Positions 2,860 to 35,564 of a stretch of DNA of 64,000 nucleotides are shown in pieces (the stretch's first letter is position 1; each line of letters begins with the position of its first letter). Location of the stretch: contig DATDXC010000032.1 in the NCBI GenBank assembly GCA_035289425.1, positions 22,550 through 86,549 on the forward strand. The letters are read 5' to 3'. This DNA is from Candidatus Nanoarchaeia archaeon (GTDB lineage: Archaea; Nanobdellota; Nanobdellia; Woesearchaeales; DATDXC01). The position numbers and the translations under genes were made by a program. The notes beneath the pieces were generated by a model. It was not told where the DNA came from, made no database searches, and saw only the letters and a list, made by a program, of their open reading frames with translations.

Positions 2860-3260
2860 AGCCCCATCCTATCGTCTAGCTTTTCTGCCACTGCCTTAAG
2901 CTTTCTGAAAGACCTGAGCAAGTCTTCTTCTATCTCATCCGTTAATTCGGAAAGATTGTCCACTCTCAATAGGTATCTGTTTCCGTCCCTCAACACTAAA
3001 CCAGAGCCCATTAAAGTATTGATGTGGTGGATGATTGTCCCTCTCGTCAATTTAAGATGGTAGCCCAACTCGTCTGAGGTCAATGGGTGCCTCAGCTTTG
3101 CAGCCTTGAGAAGTTCTATGAAGATCCTAAAACAGGATTTATCCTTGTCCCTCTCGCTAAACAAGCCTAGAGAATGCCCGAACCATTGCAATTCCTGATT
3201 GATGTTTTCTGCGGGCCTTTGTATATTGATGATGGTGATCTTTCTTTTGTAATATCGCAT
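2856..3260 (-). CDS. winged-HTH transcriptional regulator (possible heat-shock regulator, divergent from grpE)
   Basis: Carries a predicted HTH 'LTSDELGYHLKLTRGTIIHHINTLMGSGLV'. It lies immediately upstream of, and divergent from, grpE-dnaK-dnaJ. Confidence 0.45.
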   Translation of the reverse strand: MRYYKRKITIINIQRPAENINQELQWFGHSLGLFSERDKDKSCFRIFIELLKAAKLRHPLTSDELGYHLKLTRGTIIHHINTLMGSGLVLRDGNRYLLRVDNLSELTDEIEEDLLRSFRKLKAVAEKLDDRMGL

Positions 3261-3379
3261 AAATCAATGAAAAGAGCTGAAATATTTAAACTTTTTGATG
3301 AAATGTATATTTCAGGATAGAAATCTTTAAATACTAGTAGATTTTACCATAATTCTGTTGACTTTAAATCAACAATGAA

Positions 3380-3862
3380 ATGGTGGATACAGTGAAGGAA
3401 AACAAAGAACAGAAGAAGAAAGATGACGCAGACGTCAAAATTGCAGAGCTGACTGAGTCTCTCCAAAGATTACAGGCAGAGTTTGAGAATTACAAGAAAT
3501 ATGTGGAAAAGGAAAAGGTAGAATTTACAAGGTACGCCAAAGCAGATATACTGCAGAAACTGCTGCCCCTCTTAGACTCATTTGAGCTATCTCTCCAGCA
3601 TAGGGGGAATAAAGAGGAATTCATCAAGGGAATGGAGATTGTCTATTCCCAATTCCACACCTTATTGGAGAAGGAAGGCCTGAAACCCATCAAAGCAGAA
3701 GGTAAGTTAAATCCCCATCTGCATGAGGTGCTGTTAATGGAACCTTCAGCTAAGGAAGAAGATACCATATTGGCTGAACTGCAAAAAGGATACATGCTTT
3801 ATGATAAGGTTTTACGATATAGCAAGGTGAAAGTAAGCAAAAAGGATGATAAACCTCAGTAA
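3380..3862 (+). CDS. grpE: nucleotide exchange factor GrpE
   Basis: A coiled-coil N-terminus followed by a GrpE-like C-terminal beta domain. Its position upstream of dnaK supports the call. Confidence 0.8.
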   Translation: MVDTVKENKEQKKKDDADVKIAELTESLQRLQAEFENYKKYVEKEKVEFTRYAKADILQKLLPLLDSFELSLQHRGNKEEFIKGMEIVYSQFHTLLEKEGLKPIKAEGKLNPHLHEVLLMEPSAKEEDTILAELQKGYMLYDKVLRYSKVKVSKKDDKPQ

Positions 3863-4361
3863 AGATACACCACTTAAGGATGTGATGAAGTTGGCACATC
3901 CATGTGGCTGTAATGCATGTACCATAGGGTGCAAGCTGGGGAGCGGAATATTAGCGGATGAGGATCTTGCAAAGATCGCCCATTTTTTGGGAAAAACAAA
4001 AGAGGAAACCAAAAAAGAGTTTTTAGAGGAAGTAGAGAGATTCAACACAAAACGGTTCAGGCCTAAGGTGTTAGGCAAGCCGTATGGACAGTGCATCTTT
4101 TTTGATGGAAAAGAATGCAAGATACACGAAGTCAAGCCGTTGGAATGCGAGATTTCAATGGGATGCGAGGAGTATGGCGAGCAGTTAAGCATATGGTTCA
4201 TGCTCAATCATTTTGTGAACAAAAATGACCCTGAATCGATCCGTCAATATGATGCGTATCTGAGGTCAGGAGGCAAGACATTGCCCGGAGGCACGCTTGC
4301 GGATCTGGTGCCAAATGCAGAGCAATTGAAGAAAATCTTGAAATTTGAGATTTTAAGATAA
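3846..4361 (+). CDS. Cys-rich hypothetical protein (YkgJ-like zinc/iron-chelating domain?)
   Basis: Multiple CxxC-like Cys clusters, for example 'HPCGCNACTIGC'. Confidence 0.35.
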   Translation: MINLSKDTPLKDVMKLAHPCGCNACTIGCKLGSGILADEDLAKIAHFLGKTKEETKKEFLEEVERFNTKRFRPKVLGKPYGQCIFFDGKECKIHEVKPLECEISMGCEEYGEQLSIWFMLNHFVNKNDPESIRQYDAYLRSGGKTLPGGTLADLVPNAEQLKKILKFEILR

Positions 4362-4372
4362 AAGGTGAAAAA

Positions 4373-4723
4373 ATGACTGAAAAAAAGATAAATTTTGGGA
4401 TTGAGGATGGAGATGCCTTTTTTGCGCATGAGGTAAGCGTCAATTTCAATCCCACGCAGATGGTATTGGACTTCAAGAGCATTACTCCTCGAGTTGATCC
4501 GCGAAGCAATGAGGGAACAGTGATCCACATCAAGCATAATGTAATATTGCTGGATGTGTACCATGCCAAGAAGTTTTCAGAATTCCTGAATAAGAGGGTT
4601 GCTGATTATGAAAAAGATTTTGGTAAGATTGAAAAGCCGGAATCTGTCAAACAATACGAGAAAAAAAGGAAAAAAGAGGACAAGACCAAGGAGATTGTGA
4701 AAGTCCCTGAATATTTTGGATAA
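4373..4723 (+). CDS. hypothetical protein (DUF3467-like)
   Basis: A 116-aa ORF between grpE and dnaK. Its 'FFAHEVSVNFNPTQMVLDF' pattern resembles DUF3467. Confidence 0.4.
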   Translation: MTEKKINFGIEDGDAFFAHEVSVNFNPTQMVLDFKSITPRVDPRSNEGTVIHIKHNVILLDVYHAKKFSEFLNKRVADYEKDFGKIEKPESVKQYEKKRKKEDKTKEIVKVPEYFG

Positions 4724-4738
4724 ACAAGGTGAGATACT

Positions 4739-6631
4739 ATGGCTGAAAAAACTAAGAAAGAAAAGATAATCGGAATTGATTTAGGAACATCGAATAGCGC
4801 TTGTGCTGTTCTCCAGGCAGGCAAACCTACTATTGTACCCAGCGCAGAAGGCACTTCCCAATATGGGAAGGCATTTCCTTCGGTGGTAGCCATCACCAAA
4901 GATGGCCAGATGCTCGTGGGAGAGCCGGCAAGAAGACAGGCTGTCTCAAACCCCAGAGGAACAATCATGGCTGCCAAAAGAAAGATGGGCACCAGCTTCA
5001 AGTACAAGATAAACGAAAAAGAGTTTACGCCTCAGCAGATCTCTGCCTTTATCCTGCAGAAGATAAAGAAGGACGCAGAGGAATTCATCGGAGAGCCGGT
5101 GAGGAGAGCGGTCATCACTGTTCCTGCCTATTTTGATGATGACCAGAGGCAGGCTACGAAAGATGCCGGAACGATTGCTGGACTGGATGTCGTGAGAATT
5201 GTAAATGAACCAACCGCTGCCTGCCTTGCCTATGGTCTGGACAAAGCAGACAAACAGATGAAGATCCTGGTATTTGACTTTGGCGGCGGTACATTGGATG
5301 TAACGGTCATGGATTTTGGCGACGGCGTATTTGAAGTCAAATCAACCTCAGGAGACACCCAGCTTGGCGGAACTGATATGGATGATACATTGATGAAGCA
5401 CATTGTTGCTGATTTCAAGAAGAAAGAAGGTGTTGATTTAAGCGAAGATGACACTGCTATGCAGCGATTGAGGGAAGCAGCTGAAAAGGCAAAGATCGAA
5501 TTAAGCACAACTGCGGAAACAGACATCAATCTTCCTTTCCTAACCCAAAAGGATGGCACTCCAGTCCATCTTAAGATGACGTTGACAAAGGCAAAGCTTG
5601 AACAGCTGGTAGAGCCATTGATACAGAGATGCAAGAAGCCATTGGAGCAGGCACTTTCAGATGCAAAGTTAAGGCCTTCTGACATCAATAAGATCATCTT
5701 AGTGGGGGGTCCTACGAGGATGCCTATAGCCAGGAAGTTTGTCGAGGATTTTGTTGGCAAGAAGGCAGAAAGAGGGATTGACCCTATGGAATGCGTTGCT
5801 CAAGGTGCTGCTGTCCAGGCTGGTGTCCTGGCTGGTGAGGTAAAAGACATCCTGCTTTTGGATGTTACTCCATTGACTTTGGGTATAGAGACTTTAGGCG
5901 GGGTCAGGACAGAGCTGATTTCAAGGAATACCACTGTCCCCACCAAGAAGAGCCAGATTTTCTCAACAGCCTCAGACAATCAGCCTGCGGTAAATATCAA
6001 TGTGCTTCAGGGAGAAAGGCCGATGGCTGCAGACAACAAATCATTGGGAAGATTTGATCTGATGGGCATACCGCCTGCACCTAAAGGGATACCTCAGATC
6101 GAGGTTACTTTTGACATCGATGCCAATGGAATCTTGCATGTATCTGCCAAGGATTTGGGCACGGGGAAGGAGCAGAAGATACAGATAACTGCTGCCCAGA
6201 AGCTCAGCGAAGATGAGATTGAGAAGATGAAGAAGGATGCTGAGATACATGCAGATGAGGACAAGAAGCGCAAGGAAAAGGCAGACACGCTCAATGAGGC
6301 AGAAGGCATTGTTACCCAGTATGAAAAGACACTCAAGGAATTAGGCGACAAAGTAGACAAGAAGCAGGTAGAACCTATCCAGAGAGACATCGAAAACCTC
6401 AAGGAACTGCTCAAGGACAGGGATAAGAACTATGAGATTATCAAGAAAGCAAAGGATGACCTCATACAGAAATTCCAGAAGGTCTCTGAAGAGCTTTACC
6501 GGAAAGTAGCTGAGGAACAAGCAAAGAAGCAGGGTTCTGACTCTAAGGGATTTTCAAAGAGATCAAACGAAGATGATGAAGATGTAGTAGATGCTGACTA
6601 TGAAGTTCAGGATGACAAGAAGAAAAAATAA
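4739..6631 (+). CDS. dnaK: molecular chaperone DnaK (Hsp70)
   Basis: Carries the '[14 protein letters not shown]', 'DLGGGTLDV' and '[11 protein letters not shown]' Hsp70 signatures across its full length. Confidence 0.95.
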
Positions 6632-19788: not shown

Positions 19789-21105
19789 TTAAGAAGGGAT
19801 ATCAATATCGGGATAAGCCTCTTCTCCATGCTGTGTTAAGTCTAAACCGAGCACTTCCTCTTTCTTTGTTACACGCAATTTAATAACAAAGTCAATGGCC
19901 TTAAATATGATTATAGTTGCTAAGAATGCATAAGCTGCTGTCGCAATAACTGCGATCAGTTGGATGATGACCAACATTGGATTTCCAGCTATTAGACCGT
20001 TGCCCCCTGCGGCATTAATTGCTATCTCAGCAAATACTCCGGTCAAGATCGCTCCGGTAATGCCGCCAATGCCATGGCAGGCAAACACATCTAATGCGTC
20101 ATCGAGTTTCGTCCTTGTCTTAATAAAAACAACTGCAGTATAACATGCTATACCTGCAATTACCCCAATGATTATTGAGGAGGCCACACTTACGTAGCCT
20201 GAAGCAGGTGTTATCGCAACCAAACCACACACAGCGCCAGTAACTATACCCATACTGCTTGGTTTTTTATTGTGAATCCAACTTACTGCCATCCACGACA
20301 AAGCGGCTGCTGCTGCTGCTGTGTTAGTAACAACGAAGGCTTGTGCCGCCAACCCATTCGCTCCTAACGCAGAGCCTGCGTTAAAACCAAACCAGCCAAA
20401 CCATAGGAACGCTGCTCCAAAAATGGTCATGGTGATGTCGTGCGGCCTTATTTCACTGCCTGCATTCAATTCAACTCGCTTGCCGATCAACAATGCTACT
20501 GCGAGAGCTGAAACGCCGGCAGTAATGTGGACCACAGTTCCACCCGCAAAATCCAACATACCTAAACTGCGAATCCACCCACCTACACCCCACACCCAGT
20601 GTGCTACCGGAGCATACACAAATATTGACCACGCTATGATAAACAGTATGAATGCAGCAAACTTCATTCTGTCTGCAAAAGCACCTATAATCAAAGCTGG
20701 TGTGATGATTGCAAACATTGCCTGAAATATCATAAATGCCAGCGCAGGAATGGTTGAACTATAATTCGGATCAGCTTCCATTCCAACACCTCTAAGGCCA
20801 ACATGGGCAAGATTTCCAAGAAAACCAGACCCATTATCTGGGCCGAAGGCTAAGGTGTAACCAATCAGTACCCATATAATGCTAACGAGGGCAATAATGA
20901 TAAAACTCTGAGTTAAAATGGCAAGCACATTTTTTTTCCGTACCATGCCCCCATAAAAAAAACCTAATGCAGGAGTCATCATCATAACCAAGGCAGCTGA
21001 GAGTAATACCCATGCAGTATCACCTGCGCTTATTTCCGTTTCCGCAGCCACGGTTGGCATTAAAGACACAATGCAAAAAAATAAGATTGATAATTTCGTT
21101 TTCAT
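19789..21105 (-). CDS. amt: ammonium transporter
   Basis: A multi-TM Amt/MEP family protein with a signal peptide. Confidence 0.9.
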   Translation of the reverse strand: MKTKLSILFFCIVSLMPTVAAETEISAGDTAWVLLSAALVMMMTPALGFFYGGMVRKKNVLAILTQSFIIIALVSIIWVLIGYTLAFGPDNGSGFLGNLAHVGLRGVGMEADPNYSSTIPALAFMIFQAMFAIITPALIIGAFADRMKFAAFILFIIAWSIFVYAPVAHWVWGVGGWIRSLGMLDFAGGTVVHITAGVSALAVALLIGKRVELNAGSEIRPHDITMTIFGAAFLWFGWFGFNAGSALGANGLAAQAFVVTNTAAAAAALSWMAVSWIHNKKPSSMGIVTGAVCGLVAITPASGYVSVASSIIIGVIAGIACYTAVVFIKTRTKLDDALDVFACHGIGGITGAILTGVFAEIAINAAGGNGLIAGNPMLVIIQLIAVIATAAYAFLATIIIFKAIDFVIKLRVTKKEEVLGLDLTQHGEEAYPDIDIPS

Positions 21106-21240
21106 AATAAAGAAAGAAAAATAGCACTTTTATATAGTTTTCTTCTATATTACTAAACAATTGTTCTTATTTTTTAGTAAAATTTAAATATTCATCAGTA
21201 TTATTGTACTTTTATAAGTATAAAGTAAACATTTGTAAAA

Positions 21241-21684
21241 ATGAAGGTCGACGATAAAGACAAGAGGATACTCAATGCCCTGCTTAGAAATAGCAAGCTT
21301 TCGTTACGTGAGATTGCAAAAATAGCGGATGTTTCGGTTGCCACGGTCATGAACCGTGTTAACCGATTAGAGAAAGAGGGAATAATCAAGAAATATTCAA
21401 CAATTCTTGATTATGAAAAATTAGGTTTTGATGTCGAAGTTTTGATTGAGATAAGGATATCCAAAGGGAAGCTATTCCATGTGGAAAAGGAGATAGATCA
21501 TCACCCCAATGTTTTTGCAGTCTATGATATCACCGGAGAGTTTGATGCTGCTATTTTAGCCAGATTTCCTGGCAGAAGGCAGATGGATGCTTTTTTGAAG
21601 AAAATCCAGACCTATGATTTTGTTGAACGGACTAATACCCGATTGATCCTGAATACCATAAAGGAAAAACAGATTGAAGTCTAA
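21241..21684 (+). CDS. Lrp/AsnC family transcriptional regulator
   Basis: An N-terminal HTH followed by a RAM domain, divergent from amt. Confidence 0.8.
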   Translation: MKVDDKDKRILNALLRNSKLSLREIAKIADVSVATVMNRVNRLEKEGIIKKYSTILDYEKLGFDVEVLIEIRISKGKLFHVEKEIDHHPNVFAVYDITGEFDAAILARFPGRRQMDAFLKKIQTYDFVERTNTRLILNTIKEKQIEV

Positions 21685-22986: not shown

Positions 22987-23059
22987 AGCCCCGTGGTGTA
23001 GCGGTCAATCATTCTGGCTTTTGGAGCCGGAGACGGCGGTTCGAATCCGCCCGGGGCTA
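22987..23059 (+). tRNA. tRNA-Gln (anticodon TTG)
   Basis: Acceptor AGCCCCG/CGGGGCT, anticodon arm CTGGC-TTTTGGA-GCCGG, T-arm GGCGG-TTCGAAT-CCGCC, discriminator A. Confidence 0.85.
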
Positions 23060-23254
23060 TTTAGGCAATTGGTTCCTCGGTTATGAAGTCAATCTCTTAG
23101 ATAAGACCAAAATATAAAACTATTCATGCTAGATCCGCTACACTTTCCATTCGGTACGAATTTTTATTTTCTGAGTTGAAAATATGAAGCGTAGCGTATT
23201 TTCAACGAAAGTTTTATATACTAAATATATAATATTATATATTAACTATATAGC

Positions 23255-23932
23255 ATGAAAGCCTATAAAGATACGGAAAACAAGATAGTGGGGAATTTAT
23301 TAAGGCAGCCACTGATAAGCAAAAGCGTGCATCAGATTGCATTAGATACAAAATTAATGTATGTAACTGTGCATAAAATAATCCCTCTTTTATTGGGAAG
23401 AAGACTGATAAAACTAGAAAAAAAAGGAAATACCAACCTTATCTCCGTAGATTTTGAAAATGCAAAAATCGGGGATTTAAGTTCTGCTATATTGTCTGAG
23501 AAAGATACATTAATGAAGAAATATCCCCCCGTCGCTATTCTAACAAAAGATATTGAAGACGCGTTATCCGGAAAGCTATATATTTTACTTTTATTTGGCT
23601 CTTACGCTAAAGAAATTCCAAGGCAAAGCCTTGTAAGTTTATCAAACTCAAAAGAGTTCGATAAAAAAGAAAAAAAAGACTCGGATGTTGATCTTCTTTT
23701 TATCGTCTCTAACAGAAAAGATATTGAATTTTACAAAGAAAAAATTAATAAAGCTTTGAGGTTATCAACATTAAAAAATGATTTTAACATAGTTACCACA
23801 GATGATTTTGTGGATATGTTAAACCAGAAATACACGGTTGGCAGAGAGGCTTTTGAGCAAGGAATTGTGCTTTTTGGGACAGAGCCTTATTATGCTATGG
23901 TAAGGGGACATGCTACAAAAAGAGGATATTGA
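23255..23932 (+). CDS. nucleotidyltransferase (MNT-type, with N-terminal wHTH)
   Basis: Has the 'LLLFGSYAKE ... DVDLLFIV' minimal NTase motif. It overlaps the next gene by 23 nt. Confidence 0.6.
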   Translation: MKAYKDTENKIVGNLLRQPLISKSVHQIALDTKLMYVTVHKIIPLLLGRRLIKLEKKGNTNLISVDFENAKIGDLSSAILSEKDTLMKKYPPVAILTKDIEDALSGKLYILLLFGSYAKEIPRQSLVSLSNSKEFDKKEKKDSDVDLLFIVSNRKDIEFYKEKINKALRLSTLKNDFNIVTTDDFVDMLNQKYTVGREAFEQGIVLFGTEPYYAMVRGHATKRGY

Positions 23933-24521
23933 AGAAGCAAAGAAGCTCTTTACAGAGTGGGATAACAAGCGTAGGTGGGATACTCCACACCCTGCTTTTT
24001 TGAACCATACAAAGAAAAAGGCGCAAGACTCTTTGAATTTAGCATTGTATCTTTTAGACAAGGTCGAGCAAACAGGAGAGCTTGAAGGTAATGACACAGT
24101 TACTATATGGATTATTGCTGCAAGTTATTACTCAATGTTTTTTGGGGTTGAATATTTATTAGGATTGGATGGAAAAAAGCTTCCGAAAGGAGCAAAAGAC
24201 ACCCACAAAACAATGTATCTTGCTTTTATCTATTACTATATAATAAAAGGATCTGAACTAGAACAGAAAAAGCCTACAGAGATAACAACGAGTAGAATGT
24301 CAAAAGCATTGGCAATATTCAAAGAATTACAAGATGAAACTCTTGAATTGCATAGAATAGAGAAAGGCGCTAAAGACTTGAAAGAACAAAAAGATGAAAG
24401 AAATGCTTTTACTTACCAAATGAACAGGACAGCAAAATTGTCTGAAGCTCAGAACAGCACCATAAAAGCAACAGAATTTAGGGAATTGATTGAAGAGTAC
24501 ATCCTGTCAAAACAGAAATAA
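23910..24521 (+). CDS. HEPN-like partner protein of the nucleotidyltransferase (putative)
   Basis: An alpha-helical 203-aa ORF whose reading frame overlaps that of the NTase gene. Confidence 0.4.
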   Translation: MLQKEDIEEAKKLFTEWDNKRRWDTPHPAFLNHTKKKAQDSLNLALYLLDKVEQTGELEGNDTVTIWIIAASYYSMFFGVEYLLGLDGKKLPKGAKDTHKTMYLAFIYYYIIKGSELEQKKPTEITTSRMSKALAIFKELQDETLELHRIEKGAKDLKEQKDERNAFTYQMNRTAKLSEAQNSTIKATEFRELIEEYILSKQK

Positions 24522-24538
24522 ATGCAAGGTTTTAAACT

Positions 24539-25255
24539 ATGGAAGAAAAAAGCCAAGCAGTTAAGGAATACAAGCAAGCTTTTGATGAATTTTATAAAGA
24601 TAAGCCAGAGCCCAAAGACAAAGAAGAAAGCAAAAAAATGTTGGAAGAGTTCTTTCATTGGTATAATAATGTGAGGAAACAGTCTGATATCGGAAAAACT
24701 CCTGCTGAGATGTACAAGGAAATCTATGGTGTAGGCCCTTCTAAGACAGTAGACCTAGATGAAGGAGTAGAAGAGGGTATTAATGAGGAGGAGATAGAAG
24801 ATTTGAGGGAGTTTTTTGATAGGGAGCTCTGGCCAAAACTAAAGAAGGATTTGAAAGAAGCGACCAAAAAGGAGGCATGTTTCATTAGTTTTTTAGCTGG
24901 AACGGAGATTTCAAATAACATGTTTGAAGAAGAAATGAAACATACTCAGAAAACTTTTGAAAATATGACTCCGGAAGAAATCACAAAGATGATTAAGAAG
25001 GAGGAAAACCCCAAAATGAGAGAAGAAAGTCTTTGGGCAGAAGGCGGATTTATGGAAACATTAGGTCCAATTGATATTAAAGAAAGAATGAAAACATTTC
25101 ACAAAAAGCATGACGAAGATATGAATTATGAATGTAAGAAATGCGGAAAAAAGATTTCGGCCCATAACAAAGATTGGCATGCTTATATGTGTGATGAATG
25201 TTTTAATGAAGAGTGTTATCCTGGAGAGCAGGAAGAAAAAATAAAAACAAAATGA
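24539..25255 (+). CDS. hypothetical protein with C-terminal zinc ribbon
   Basis: A Lys/Glu-rich ORF with C-terminal 'CKKCGKK...CDEC' motifs. Confidence 0.4.
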   Translation: MEEKSQAVKEYKQAFDEFYKDKPEPKDKEESKKMLEEFFHWYNNVRKQSDIGKTPAEMYKEIYGVGPSKTVDLDEGVEEGINEEEIEDLREFFDRELWPKLKKDLKEATKKEACFISFLAGTEISNNMFEEEMKHTQKTFENMTPEEITKMIKKEENPKMREESLWAEGGFMETLGPIDIKERMKTFHKKHDEDMNYECKKCGKKISAHNKDWHAYMCDECFNEECYPGEQEEKIKTK

Positions 25256-25260
25256 GGTGG

Positions 25261-25375
25261 TAAACATGAGTTCGACACCGGGGTTCAAATCCTGGAAAAA
25301 AGCCGAACTGCGTACCACCGACTAAGTGGGCTTGAACGAAGCAAAATCCACGAAGGTGTCGACTGGCTTCTTAGT
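25261..25375. ncRNA. tRNA-like structured element of unresolved identity (possible tRNA fragment or ncRNA)
   Basis: Contains a T-arm-like 'CCGGGGTTCAAATCC' and an 8-bp inverted repeat, TCGACACC...GGTGTCGA, enclosing ~75 nt. No canonical cloverleaf could be built on either strand. Confidence 0.3.
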
Positions 25376-25445
25376 CTGTGGGAACCTGCCAGGAGTTATT
25401 TTCTCAGATATCTTTATTAACTAAATCTCGTGTCTGCATAATGAA

Positions 25446-25521
25446 GGGGTTGTGGTCTAGCTTGGATTATGATACGTGGTTCGGGGCCACGTGGCCGGGA
25501 GTTCAAATCTCCCCAACCCCA
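25446..25521 (+). tRNA. tRNA-Pro (anticodon CGG)
   Basis: Acceptor GGGGTTG/CAACCCC, anticodon arm CGTGG-TTCGGGG-CCACG, T-arm GGGAG-TTCAAAT-CTCCC, discriminator A. The D-arm carries a U13-U22 mismatch. Confidence 0.75.
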
Positions 25522-27818: not shown

Positions 27819-28412
27819 CTATGCTTTTTCGATTTCCTTTCCCACAAATATCCAGTCATCAAGCCAGTCATCCCTAATCCTTCCTTTTTCCATGTTGAAT
27901 TTCGGCAGATAATTATGCTGCGTCCTGACTGTTTGCGTGATCTTTGCTGTTATGACCTGCCTGATGCAGTCTTCTCCCAGCCGTTCCTTAAAATAAGGGA
28001 TGAGTTTTCCATTGAATTCGTCTACTAGCTTTGATTCTGATCTCGCATCCACAATCATTATGAGTGCAAGATGCCCATCTTTCTCACCTAAATAGGAAAG
28101 GCTCACATACGTAGCTTTGAAACCTCTAAACTTGGAATCGAGGGTCACATTTTTGAAGTATTGCTCATGCGTAATTCCTATCTTAAACTTGATGATGTAC
28201 AATTGCTTTGCGTTGAACATACCAGTTCCGGTTTCGCCTGAATCGAGATTAGTATAATAAGTCAGCAAATTCTTATTTTCAAGATTTTTTCTTTTTCTGT
28301 TTACAGTCATCACTGGAATCCTTGTTCTTTTTGATATCTGGTTGTCAGAAATTCTAGGGTTTCTTATCAGTTCTCTAACAATCTTCTCTTCCTGTTGGTC
28401 CAACTCAATCAT
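27819..28412 (-). CDS. HTH-domain transcriptional regulator
   Basis: Has an N-terminal HTH 'DNQISKRTRIPVMTVNRKRKNLE' followed by a C-terminal ~130-aa domain of unknown function. Confidence 0.5.
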   Translation of the reverse strand: MIELDQQEEKIVRELIRNPRISDNQISKRTRIPVMTVNRKRKNLENKNLLTYYTNLDSGETGTGMFNAKQLYIIKFKIGITHEQYFKNVTLDSKFRGFKATYVSLSYLGEKDGHLALIMIVDARSESKLVDEFNGKLIPYFKERLGEDCIRQVITAKITQTVRTQHNYLPKFNMEKGRIRDDWLDDWIFVGKEIEKA

Positions 28413-28572
28413 TTTATACCACCTTTTTCTTATATAAGTTATATATAAACATGGGTAAATAGCATTAATTGGTAACTATATATAATATTTTCTATTTTTT
28501 AGGTATGTTTATACCATAAATAGGTAGTTAAGTATATAAGTTGATTTAGAGTTCCATGAATGGTGAAAAAGA

Positions 28573-29424
28573 ATGAATTATGATTTATGGGGTCAGCACA
28601 CTGTAGCAGAAGCAAGATATGCTGATGGTGTTGCAGTGCATGTCCGCATTCCAACAAGCGTTGTGATTGCGGGCAGACAACAGTTCGCTATGAAAGACGT
28701 TCTAGAGTTTGAGCCTCATATAGATTTACATAAGGTATCTTACCAGGCTCAAGTATTTAATGGAAGTAAGGGAAATTCCTACATCAATGGTATACCCCTT
28801 GCTCAAGTCGAGCCTTTCTTGTGGTATATTCGAAGACACCCTACAGTTGCAGATACATTTTTGGGAAGAGGTATAGTCCCTTATTCTGGTTTTATGAAGA
28901 ACCACACACTTCCAACTAATGCAGGAAAACAGTGGCTGCATTTAGGGCATGAAAAGTATGGTATTTTTGATGCTGCAACATCCCGAAAAAGTTTTAACTC
29001 TACTCAAGTACACCGGATAGCACTGTATGGTGCATTCCTCAGGGCAGTCAGACACGAATTCCAAGATCGTGATCTTGATGAAGCTCTGCCAGAGGATGTG
29101 AAAGAAGGTGTTAGTAGTGGCCTCTCATTGATCGATGCTGTTGACCGAGAGATTGATGGCCAGTCTTTTTCTATAATAGAATCGTTTACACTCATTGTTG
29201 ACGACATTGATCCGGGATTTGGAGCAAGCCAGCTTAGAGTATGCAAAAACCATGACCAACCAGTATACTGGGCTGACTATCAGGACAGAAAAATGTACCG
29301 CGTTTCTGATCCACAGCATCCACAGGTGCAACAGATAGAGGGAAGACTGGAGAAAGCACGAAATTTGGAGGTCATTGTTGCACAAGAATGTCCTGCGTGT
29401 AATGGAACTGATGTAAAGTTCTAA
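28573..29424 (+). CDS. hypothetical protein (GC-richer than surroundings; C-terminal CPACNG motif)
   Basis: A 283-aa ORF with no recognisable family. Confidence 0.35.
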   Translation: MNYDLWGQHTVAEARYADGVAVHVRIPTSVVIAGRQQFAMKDVLEFEPHIDLHKVSYQAQVFNGSKGNSYINGIPLAQVEPFLWYIRRHPTVADTFLGRGIVPYSGFMKNHTLPTNAGKQWLHLGHEKYGIFDAATSRKSFNSTQVHRIALYGAFLRAVRHEFQDRDLDEALPEDVKEGVSSGLSLIDAVDREIDGQSFSIIESFTLIVDDIDPGFGASQLRVCKNHDQPVYWADYQDRKMYRVSDPQHPQVQQIEGRLEKARNLEVIVAQECPACNGTDVKF

Positions 29425-35455: not shown

Positions 35456-35564
35456 AGCGGGGTAGGGCAGTCAGGAGTGCCCGGGGGGCTCATAACGCTC
35501 ACTGTCGAAGCGGCAGTCGCTGTTCGAAACCCCCAGGTCGGTGGTTCAAATCCACTCCCCGCTA
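35456..35564 (+). tRNA. tRNA-Met (anticodon CAT) with ~34-nt intron at the canonical 37/38 position; initiator-like features
   Basis: Acceptor AGCGGGG/CCCCGCT gives an A1:U72 pair. D-arm is GGGC/GCCC. The anticodon stem is GGGGG/CCCCC, split by an intron at ~35495-35528, with loop CTCATAA. T-arm is GGTGG-TTCAAAT-CCACT. A1:U72 and three G:C pairs in the anticodon stem suggest an initiator. Confidence 0.8.

Follow-up and report, generated by a model that had tools for sequence, protein, structure and literature searches.

A probable tRNA-Gln insertion remnant with a putative type VII-like wHTH-nucleotidyltransferase/HEPN cassette in a DPANN archaeon

Introduction

Of all predicted toxin-antitoxin modules, gene pairs encoding a minimal nucleotidyltransferase (MNT) and a HEPN protein are those found most abundantly in archaea, and we know of only one of their clades, DUF86/HepT, for which a mechanism is known. 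In these HepT/MntA systems the toxicity of the HEPN protein is neutralised by AMPylation of a tyrosine, catalysed by the MNT; their structures include those of Shewanella SO_3166/SO_3165 (PDB 5yep), of an Aphanizomenon HEPN/MNT pair (7ae2) and of a Legionella pair (8xdj). The AF0298-like HEPN proteins (UPF0332, related to PF05168) are represented by PDB 2hsb, 1ufb and 1wol. Here we analyse a pair of overlapping genes, ORF1 and ORF2, found downstream of a tRNA-Gln gene in a 64,000-nt stretch (hereafter the window) of contig DATDXC010000032.1, from a 'Candidatus Nanoarchaeia archaeon' metagenome-assembled genome (MAG). On balance, and with some reserve, we favour the view that these genes form a type VII-like toxin-antitoxin cassette, in which a winged helix-turn-helix (wHTH) domain is fused to the MNT, and that this cassette is carried by the remnant of an insertion into the tRNA gene.

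The pair departs from the described systems in several respects. The HEPN protein of HepT/MntA is a DUF86 protein with an R-x4-H-x-Y motif, whereas ORF2 is AF0298-like with R-x4-Y; it is also a 203-aa protein with an extra N-terminal helix and an insertion of ~50 residues relative to HepT. Its partner has an N-terminal wHTH domain unlike MntA, and the NCBIfam MntA equivalog model, whose cutoff is 60 bits, scores it at only 21.6. Because the Rx4-6H motif is missing and the MntA score is far below the cutoff, the pair is not a strict member of the HepT/MntA family, although by analogy it would work like an MNT-HEPN toxin-antitoxin module. Relative to the AF0298-like proteins, ORF2 lacks a PF05168 match and is ~75 residues longer, and its partner carries the wHTH domain. 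The pair fits an AF0298-like HEPN protein with its MNT, the former enlarged and the latter fused to a wHTH. Such a family, as a clean and highly conserved example of the AF0298-like clade with its own DNA-binding domain and a putative operator, is suited to direct testing of the alternative active site described below and of Y169 as a nucleotide acceptor.

The nucleotidyltransferase-HEPN pair

ARAGORN, Rfam and the list of open reading frames (ORFs) agree with the initial annotation on the positions of two tRNA genes and of the three ORFs between them, which are exact protein matches to locus tags VJH97_02935 to 02945 of the MAG. In window coordinates, the locus comprises:

22987-23059, + strand, tRNA-Gln(UUG), found by ARAGORN and Rfam; the 3' end (23032-23063) forms the core on the attL side
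23212-23243, + strand, putative promoter and operator of the cassette, from a repeat finder
23212-23220, + strand, TATA-like TTTTATATA
23224-23243, perfect 20-nt palindrome with halves AATATATAAT and ATTATATATT (whole: AATATATAATATTATATATT), its end 12 nt upstream of the ORF1 start codon ATG
23255-23932, + strand, ORF1, 225 aa
23618-23668, 17-aa insertion of ORF1 (residues 122-138), between its GS and DxD motifs
23910-24521, + strand, ORF2, 203 aa, overlapping ORF1 by 23 nt
24539-25255, + strand, ORF3, 238 aa, with CxxC...CxxC near the C-terminus
25238-25414, + strand, conserved right-end element of tRNA-Gln islands, from nhmmer, alignments and blastn
25256-25319, the "tRNA-like fragment" of the initial annotation (hairpin 25255-25320)
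25268-25327, short ORF within the element
25446-25521, tRNA-Pro(CGG), found by ARAGORN and Rfam

ORF1 consists of a wHTH domain (~residues 1-70) followed by the MNT domain. The Pfam Polbeta model recognises the window protein at 28.1 bits (cutoff 26.9) and all 38 aligned members of the family, NTP_transf_2 being found in 37 of these 38. The catalytic residues G115-S116 and D144-x-D146 are invariant in the family alignment, and the GS-x10-DxD spacing of MntA-type MNTs is seen in 36 of 37 aligned homologs, P0168 having a 4-residue insertion. In searches of the PDB with the ORF1 profile, the best match is the nucleotidyltransferase chain of 9xbd (E 1.3e-6), followed by MntA (5yep_A), HalB and HI0073. 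The best PDB sequence match of ORF2 is the other chain of the same complex; ORF1 and ORF2 therefore look like the partners in a single MNT-HEPN complex of known structure. A literature search on PDB 9xbd/9xbc and UPF0332 found no paper.

ORF2 itself has no match in Pfam, NCBIfam or PADLOC. Its family profile finds AF0298 (E 7e-4) and the HEPN chain of 9xbd (E 2e-3), and the AlphaFold model, built with 36 homologs, displays the helical-bundle fold of HEPN proteins with a predicted local distance difference test score (pLDDT) of 82.6 and a predicted template modelling score of 0.80. Among ten distant relatives, eight match PF05168, one of them above threshold (22.3 bits, cutoff 22). Seven residues are invariant in 29 sequences spanning identities down to 15%, namely Y73, Y74, H99, R164, Y169, A180 and F190. 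The motif position reads R164-N-A-F-T-Y169 and aligns with REESDY of AF0298 and RNRSDY of 9xbd, while 9xbc has a phenylalanine at that tyrosine. In AF0298-like HEPN proteins, the motif histidine has been lost and the arginine kept; a second conserved histidine, provided by an insert between helices 2 and 3, constitutes a proposed alternative active site (PMC3710099). H99 is located between helices 64-86 and 98-112 of the ORF2 model, and we infer that it is equivalent to this alternative histidine. Judged by its sequence motifs, R-x4-Y together with the alternative-histidine arrangement, ORF2 is to be placed in the AF0298-like HEPN class. The profile check of the pair thus bears out the initial annotation as to the two domains, the Polbeta/NTP_transf_2 identity of ORF1 and the HEPN nature of ORF2, but not as to the canonical Rx4-6H motif expected in the latter.

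The two genes behave as a unit. All of the relatives' loci that were read (L001-L010) have a wHTH-nucleotidyltransferase gene of 208-243 aa followed by a HEPN gene of 203-210 aa, with an identical 23-nt overlap; the two genes are adjacent, co-oriented and in a single operon, in keeping with the overlapping arrangement first annotated, and ORF2 is probably translationally coupled to ORF1. In one public annotation (P0024) the ORF2 protein has only 162 aa, its first 41 residues being left out. These residues include invariant positions, and their conservation, together with the retained overlap, supports the 203-aa form. Upstream of the nucleotidyltransferase ATG, ~45 nt are conserved in L005, L007, L009, L002/L003 and, in a shifted position, L001; beyond this point, the sequence is unrelated between lineages. 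Both genes are under purifying selection, with ratios of non-synonymous to synonymous substitution rates of 0.11-0.20 for ORF1 and 0.07-0.09 for ORF2. The family is small (79 matches at E <1e-3 among 1.84 billion cluster representatives) and confined to DPANN MAGs.

The surroundings of the pair differ in each of these relatives, as the accessory placement proposed earlier would have it, and synteny is not conserved. The flanking genes encode, depending on the lineage, a THUMP methyltransferase; TYW2 and a DUF433-PIN pair; gyrB, S3Ae and YhcG; Fic and a giant hydrolase; or AsnC and purM. A candidate case of synteny with L007, through a downstream PGAP1-like hydrolase, was rejected on the ground that the two proteins share just a 40-residue catalytic motif.

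The main rival to a toxin-antitoxin function, which we regard as unlikely, is a split two-subunit nucleotidyltransferase of the type of kanamycin nucleotidyltransferase (KNTase) or HI0073/HI0074, which combine a nucleotidyltransferase with a HEPN-like domain for substrate binding. ORF2 would then be a non-catalytic subunit binding the substrate or the nucleotide. Instead of its partner protein, the enzyme would modify the 3' end of an RNA or a small molecule, and no toxin would be involved. HI0073 does appear among the matches of ORF1, and the missing motif histidine of ORF2 would suit a non-catalytic subunit; nevertheless, the top structural and sequence neighbours of the pair are stand-alone MNT-associated HEPN proteins and toxin-antitoxin complexes. 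HI0073/HI0074 and KNTase rank lower and are without a wHTH domain, and in KNTase the two parts are fused into one chain. The alternative HEPN active site (PMC3710099) moreover agrees with the invariance of H99, R164 and Y169. Finally, a wHTH domain with a palindromic putative operator, a location in a tRNA island and the tandem MNT-HEPN pairs described below are typical of toxin-antitoxin or defence cargo.

The tRNA-Gln island

We conclude that an old insertion into tRNA-Gln, by now eroded, occupies the region from 23060 to ~25401. Its borders were recognised through relatives. A short-word BLAST against their loci revealed that the sequence of the fragment at 25256-25319 lies directly downstream of a 90%-identical pair in L005/L006, where it continues into GACGGCAGTTCGAATCTGCCCGGGGCTATTT. 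This stretch repeats the 3' end of a tRNA-Gln(CUG) gene directly, with 37/38 nt matching. The complete tRNA-Gln(CUG) gene is located 4.9 kb upstream of this repeat, and the nucleotidyltransferase and HEPN genes are the last two of the island so delimited; the two repeats are classical left and right attachment sites (attL/attR). An nhmmer model of the right-end element, made from four copies with the window left out, matches the 64 kb at two places only: 25238-25414 (E 9.5e-21), where model positions 3-152 are covered and the att core is included, and 23032-23063 (E 5e-6), the 3' end of tRNA-Gln. The attR core itself, at ~25378-25401, shares 18 of 24 positions with that of the relatives, a score that is exceeded in the window by tRNA-Gln alone and was reached in none of 20 shuffles. 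The two model matches, the core score and the att repeats of the relatives together define an island that runs from tRNA-Gln to ~25401. The insertion between two tRNA genes suggested by the initial annotation is upheld as concerns tRNA-Gln, of which an eroded 3'-end copy forms the right border. The other tRNA gene is uninvolved: tRNA-Pro and its promoter are neighbours beyond the island.

Base composition is of little help here. The three island genes have a GC content of 0.32-0.36 against 0.42-0.45 in the flanks, but patches of comparably low GC are also present at 20750-21500 and 28000-28750; composition alone is therefore weak evidence for an island. These patches are in fact one argument for a sceptical reading, in which there is no island at all and an ordinary chromosomal regulatory or enzymatic module sits between two tRNA genes, the similarity to tRNA-Gln being due to local duplication or chance. 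The region is also identical in all eight contigs that carry it, which come from different samples, and neither an integrase nor an empty site was found for it. We nonetheless hold this reading to be very improbable, as the window-free element model matches just the two predicted borders in 64 kb, a near-perfect 37/38-nt repeat surrounds the homologous cassette of a relative, and the neighbourhood of the pair is different in every lineage.

In comparison with the known archaeal elements that target tRNA genes, which use tyrosine recombinases and duplicate the 3' end of the tRNA gene, the island is alike in its insertion at a tRNA 3' end and in the direct repeat at the far border, which is near-perfect in L005 and eroded in the window. 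Unlike in them, no integrase gene, whole or split, was found in it or in the related islands examined. At 2.3-4.9 kb the tRNA-Gln islands are also very small, and they may lie in tandem.

Proposed mode of action

According to the scheme that we favour, the region would be what is left of a small integrative element that inserted into tRNA-Gln, decayed and is now fixed, and its main cargo would be the self-contained two-gene cassette formed by ORF1 and ORF2. The functional steps are modelled on the HepT/MntA type VII systems (PMC7641770, PMC11586414). ORF2 would be a latent RNA-targeting effector, an RNase with a putative active site made up of R164 and the alternative histidine H99. ORF1 would restrain it by complex formation and by transfer of a nucleoside monophosphate, for which the invariant Y169 is the candidate acceptor, and the wHTH domain of ORF1 would bind the 20-nt palindrome, which separates the TATA box from the start codon, and thereby repress the promoter of the cassette. 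A module of this kind would stabilise the mobile element or serve in abortive-infection defence. Past mobility would have depended on a tyrosine-type integrase, either supplied in trans or since lost. Toxin-antitoxin function as such, with its presumed RNase activity, nucleotide transfer and autoregulation, is what we infer for the pair from this analogy.

A number of observations weigh against this scheme. As to mobility, none of ORF1-3 is a recombinase, and no integrase was seen in the islands of L005, L015 and L018. Exact look-ups of the HisRS and of the downstream hydrolase gave island carriers only (8 of 8 hydrolase contigs) and no empty tRNA-Gln site. Neither the element pattern nor relatives of ORF2 were found among the IMG/VR viral contigs, a result on which a viral origin of the island was rejected. 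Six of the 24 positions of the attR core have diverged. As to the pair, the canonical R-x4-H-x-Y form of the Rx4-6H motif is absent, with a histidine at that position in none of the 29 aligned members, and for this reason ORF2 could be non-catalytic; the motif region is also poorly modelled (pLDDT ~51-53 for residues 151-170). In ORF1, the 17-aa in-frame insertion (IPRQSLVSLSNSKEFDK) changes the spacing to GS-x27-DxD. Since it separates the GS and DxD motifs and is restricted to the window lineage among 38 homologs, the nucleotidyltransferase may be impaired in this lineage while the HEPN gene is intact. The insertion appears as a disordered loop in the ORF1 model (pLDDT <50 at residues 122-139) and is fixed: all 8 contigs retrieved with the exact sequence of the downstream hydrolase, which stem from different samples, contain it. 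Lastly, an identity of 60-91% across DPANN lineages is unusually high for a toxin-antitoxin pair.

The conserved right-end element

The fragment at 25256-25319 had been annotated as tRNA-like. As a tRNA, a tRNA pseudogene or a split tRNA half, it is seen neither by ARAGORN (default or relaxed) nor by Rfam (E<=10), and it is not a tRNA remnant, since it belongs to a conserved unit that goes on for another ~75 nt and closes with a tRNA-Gln 3'-end copy. This unit is the right-end element (25238-25414). Its parts are, in order, an A-rich lead-in that overlaps the last codons of ORF3; the hairpin, with a 7-bp outer stem (GGTGGTA/TACCACC), an inner stem (GTTCGAC/GTTGAAC) and a T-arm-like tip; a TACCACCGAC box; and the eroded tRNA-Gln 3'-end copy. 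The core lies between inverted repeats. Compared with the other copies, that of the window contains extra sequence (alignment gaps of a few tens of nt), and its short ORF is truncated. Covariation is uninformative on RNA structure, with one compensatory pair in 24 across five copies, which is too little variation.

Least expected is the association of this element with several unrelated cassettes, once in tandem. L015 contains two different wHTH-nucleotidyltransferase/HEPN pairs in succession (203 + 164 aa and 193 + 170 aa; positions 3181-6052), each directly followed by a ~150-nt element with its tRNA-Gln 3' copy; no tRNA-Gln gene is found within the 6.7 kb of sequence of this locus. In L018 the element comes after a DUF488-containing segment, and in L011/L012 a degenerate version of it comes after a homolog of ORF3, itself preceded by a 193-aa wHTH-nucleotidyltransferase. 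Five independent copies were recovered by scans of genome and metagenome collections, which covered exact patterns only. The conserved DNA tail after a cassette has, as such, not been described before. It provides a sequence handle for small integrated elements in DPANN archaea, whose mobile elements are poorly charted.

These arrangements recall integrons, of which toxin-antitoxin genes are a typical cargo. In another reading of the locus, the ~150-nt element would be the recombination site of an integron-like or dif-module-like system of cassette capture, the recombinase being encoded elsewhere. Arrays of small cassettes, in many cases MNT-HEPN pairs, would be built up downstream of tRNA-Gln in DPANN archaea, and the window would hold an array of one or two cassettes. 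The same element stands directly behind three different wHTH-nucleotidyltransferase/HEPN pairs, a cassette with ORF3 and one with DUF488; the two tandem cassettes of L015 have one each; the inner stem of the hairpin resembles, by eye, the R''/R' boxes of attC sites; and inverted repeats lie on either side of the core. Integrons have been reported in Archaea, Nanoarchaeota included (PMC9668308), and share with the islands arrays of small promoter-bearing cassettes, each closed by a hairpin-forming element. The likeness does not extend to the hallmarks of an attC site, namely the R''/L''/L'/R' boxes with IntI and attI nearby. No IntI, attI or other recombinase was seen at these loci, and the hairpin, at ~40 nt, is under the attC size range. 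All copies retain the ~75 nt that follow it, up to and including tRNA-Gln 3' sequence, which points to a crossover in the tRNA-derived core, as with ordinary tRNA-targeting integrases, and not in an attC R' box. The exact-pattern scans gave only five independent copies, and tandem arrays can also arise from repeated integration at a regenerated att site. We therefore consider capture of the integron or dif-module type improbable.

A broader formulation, doubtful but less so, is that a trans-acting recombinase shuffles very small promoter-bearing cassettes, for the most part wHTH-MNT/HEPN pairs, through the element (hairpin, TACCACCGAC box and core) at Woesearchaeal/DPANN tRNA-Gln loci, with tandem arrays and by a route distinct from integrons. 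If true, this would amount to an archaeal cassette-array platform of a new kind, and only in that event would current understanding be changed. The element may also simply represent the attR arm in a family of small elements that target tRNA-Gln.

A short ORF (MSSTPGFESGK..., MSSTPGFESGKSVEPLTTYHRPQTKADGSSNLPGAI...), preceded by a Shine-Dalgarno-like GAGGTGGT, runs through the hairpin and the att core. It has 48-55 codons in the relatives (L005 7675-7821; L015 4257-4424 and 5891-6052) and 19 in the window, and the substitutions between copies, compared by eye, are mostly non-synonymous. It may be a gene for a peptide or just a by-product of conservation at the level of DNA. A role as the N-terminal part of an SSV-type integrase split by integration is not supported, as it stops at 48-55 codons even in attP-like junctions.

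ORF3 and other features of the locus and its relatives

The zinc-ribbon protein annotated downstream of the pair is present as ORF3, which is modular: an N-terminal module (residues 8-65), a helical middle part and a C-terminal Cys/His zinc ribbon (~168-228). The first module, with the motif FFxWYNxxRKQSDTGKTPAEMY, weakly matches the C-terminal tail of rve, IS3, IS481 and phrog transposases (four libraries, E 0.003-0.01). The last one (LWxEGxFAETLGP...CKKCxKKISAHNKDWH..CDxCFN) is also seen in other proteins of DPANN archaea, joined to PRiA4_ORF3, SEC-C or YkgJ domains, and both end modules are promiscuous in these archaea (homologs P0257, P0261, P0283, P0293 and P0299). The initial annotation had grouped the three genes into a single island unit. 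Because ORF3 is not found beside the pair in any relative read, it is a separate cargo, outside the MNT-HEPN unit; its homolog in the tRNA-Gln island of L011/L012 follows a different wHTH-nucleotidyltransferase.

The tRNA-Gln(CUG) gene that carries this last island (L011 ~4168-4283; L012 ~160-290) has an intron of ~40 nt inside the T-loop (GGTTCGAAT-intron-CCGCC). The intron position is non-canonical, and the gene is undetected by ARAGORN.

In the left part of other related tRNA-Gln islands, there is a nearly identical gene of 118-121 aa from the 23S_rRNA_IVP family, which has a four-helix bundle (L005 3672-4037; L015 2113-2469; L018 3541-3897 on the - strand). A small zinc-ribbon gene precedes it in two of the three loci, as 59-aa ORFs (L015 1937-2116; L018 3894-4073). 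The window island lacks the 23S_rRNA_IVP-family gene.

Further toxin-antitoxin-like pairs were observed near the conserved pair in L002 (1634-2585 and 7135-7717) and L013 (2921-4079 and 9532-10618). They comprise a Polbeta nucleotidyltransferase with a 121-aa partner, DUF433 with PIN, and other nucleotidyltransferase/HEPN pairs; the small genomes of these relatives appear to be rich in such modules.

Within the window, a 30-nt direct repeat with 73% identity (25397-25426 and 23197-23226) spans the TATA-like boxes of tRNA-Pro and ORF1. It is probably a reflection of shared archaeal promoter architecture and not a recombination repeat. At 35456-35564, on the + strand, there is a third tRNA gene (anticodon CAT), interrupted by an intron of ~36 nt; it was missed by ARAGORN and is recognised by Rfam (45.8 bits, E 9e-9). 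Its T-arm matches the att core at 17 of 24 positions.

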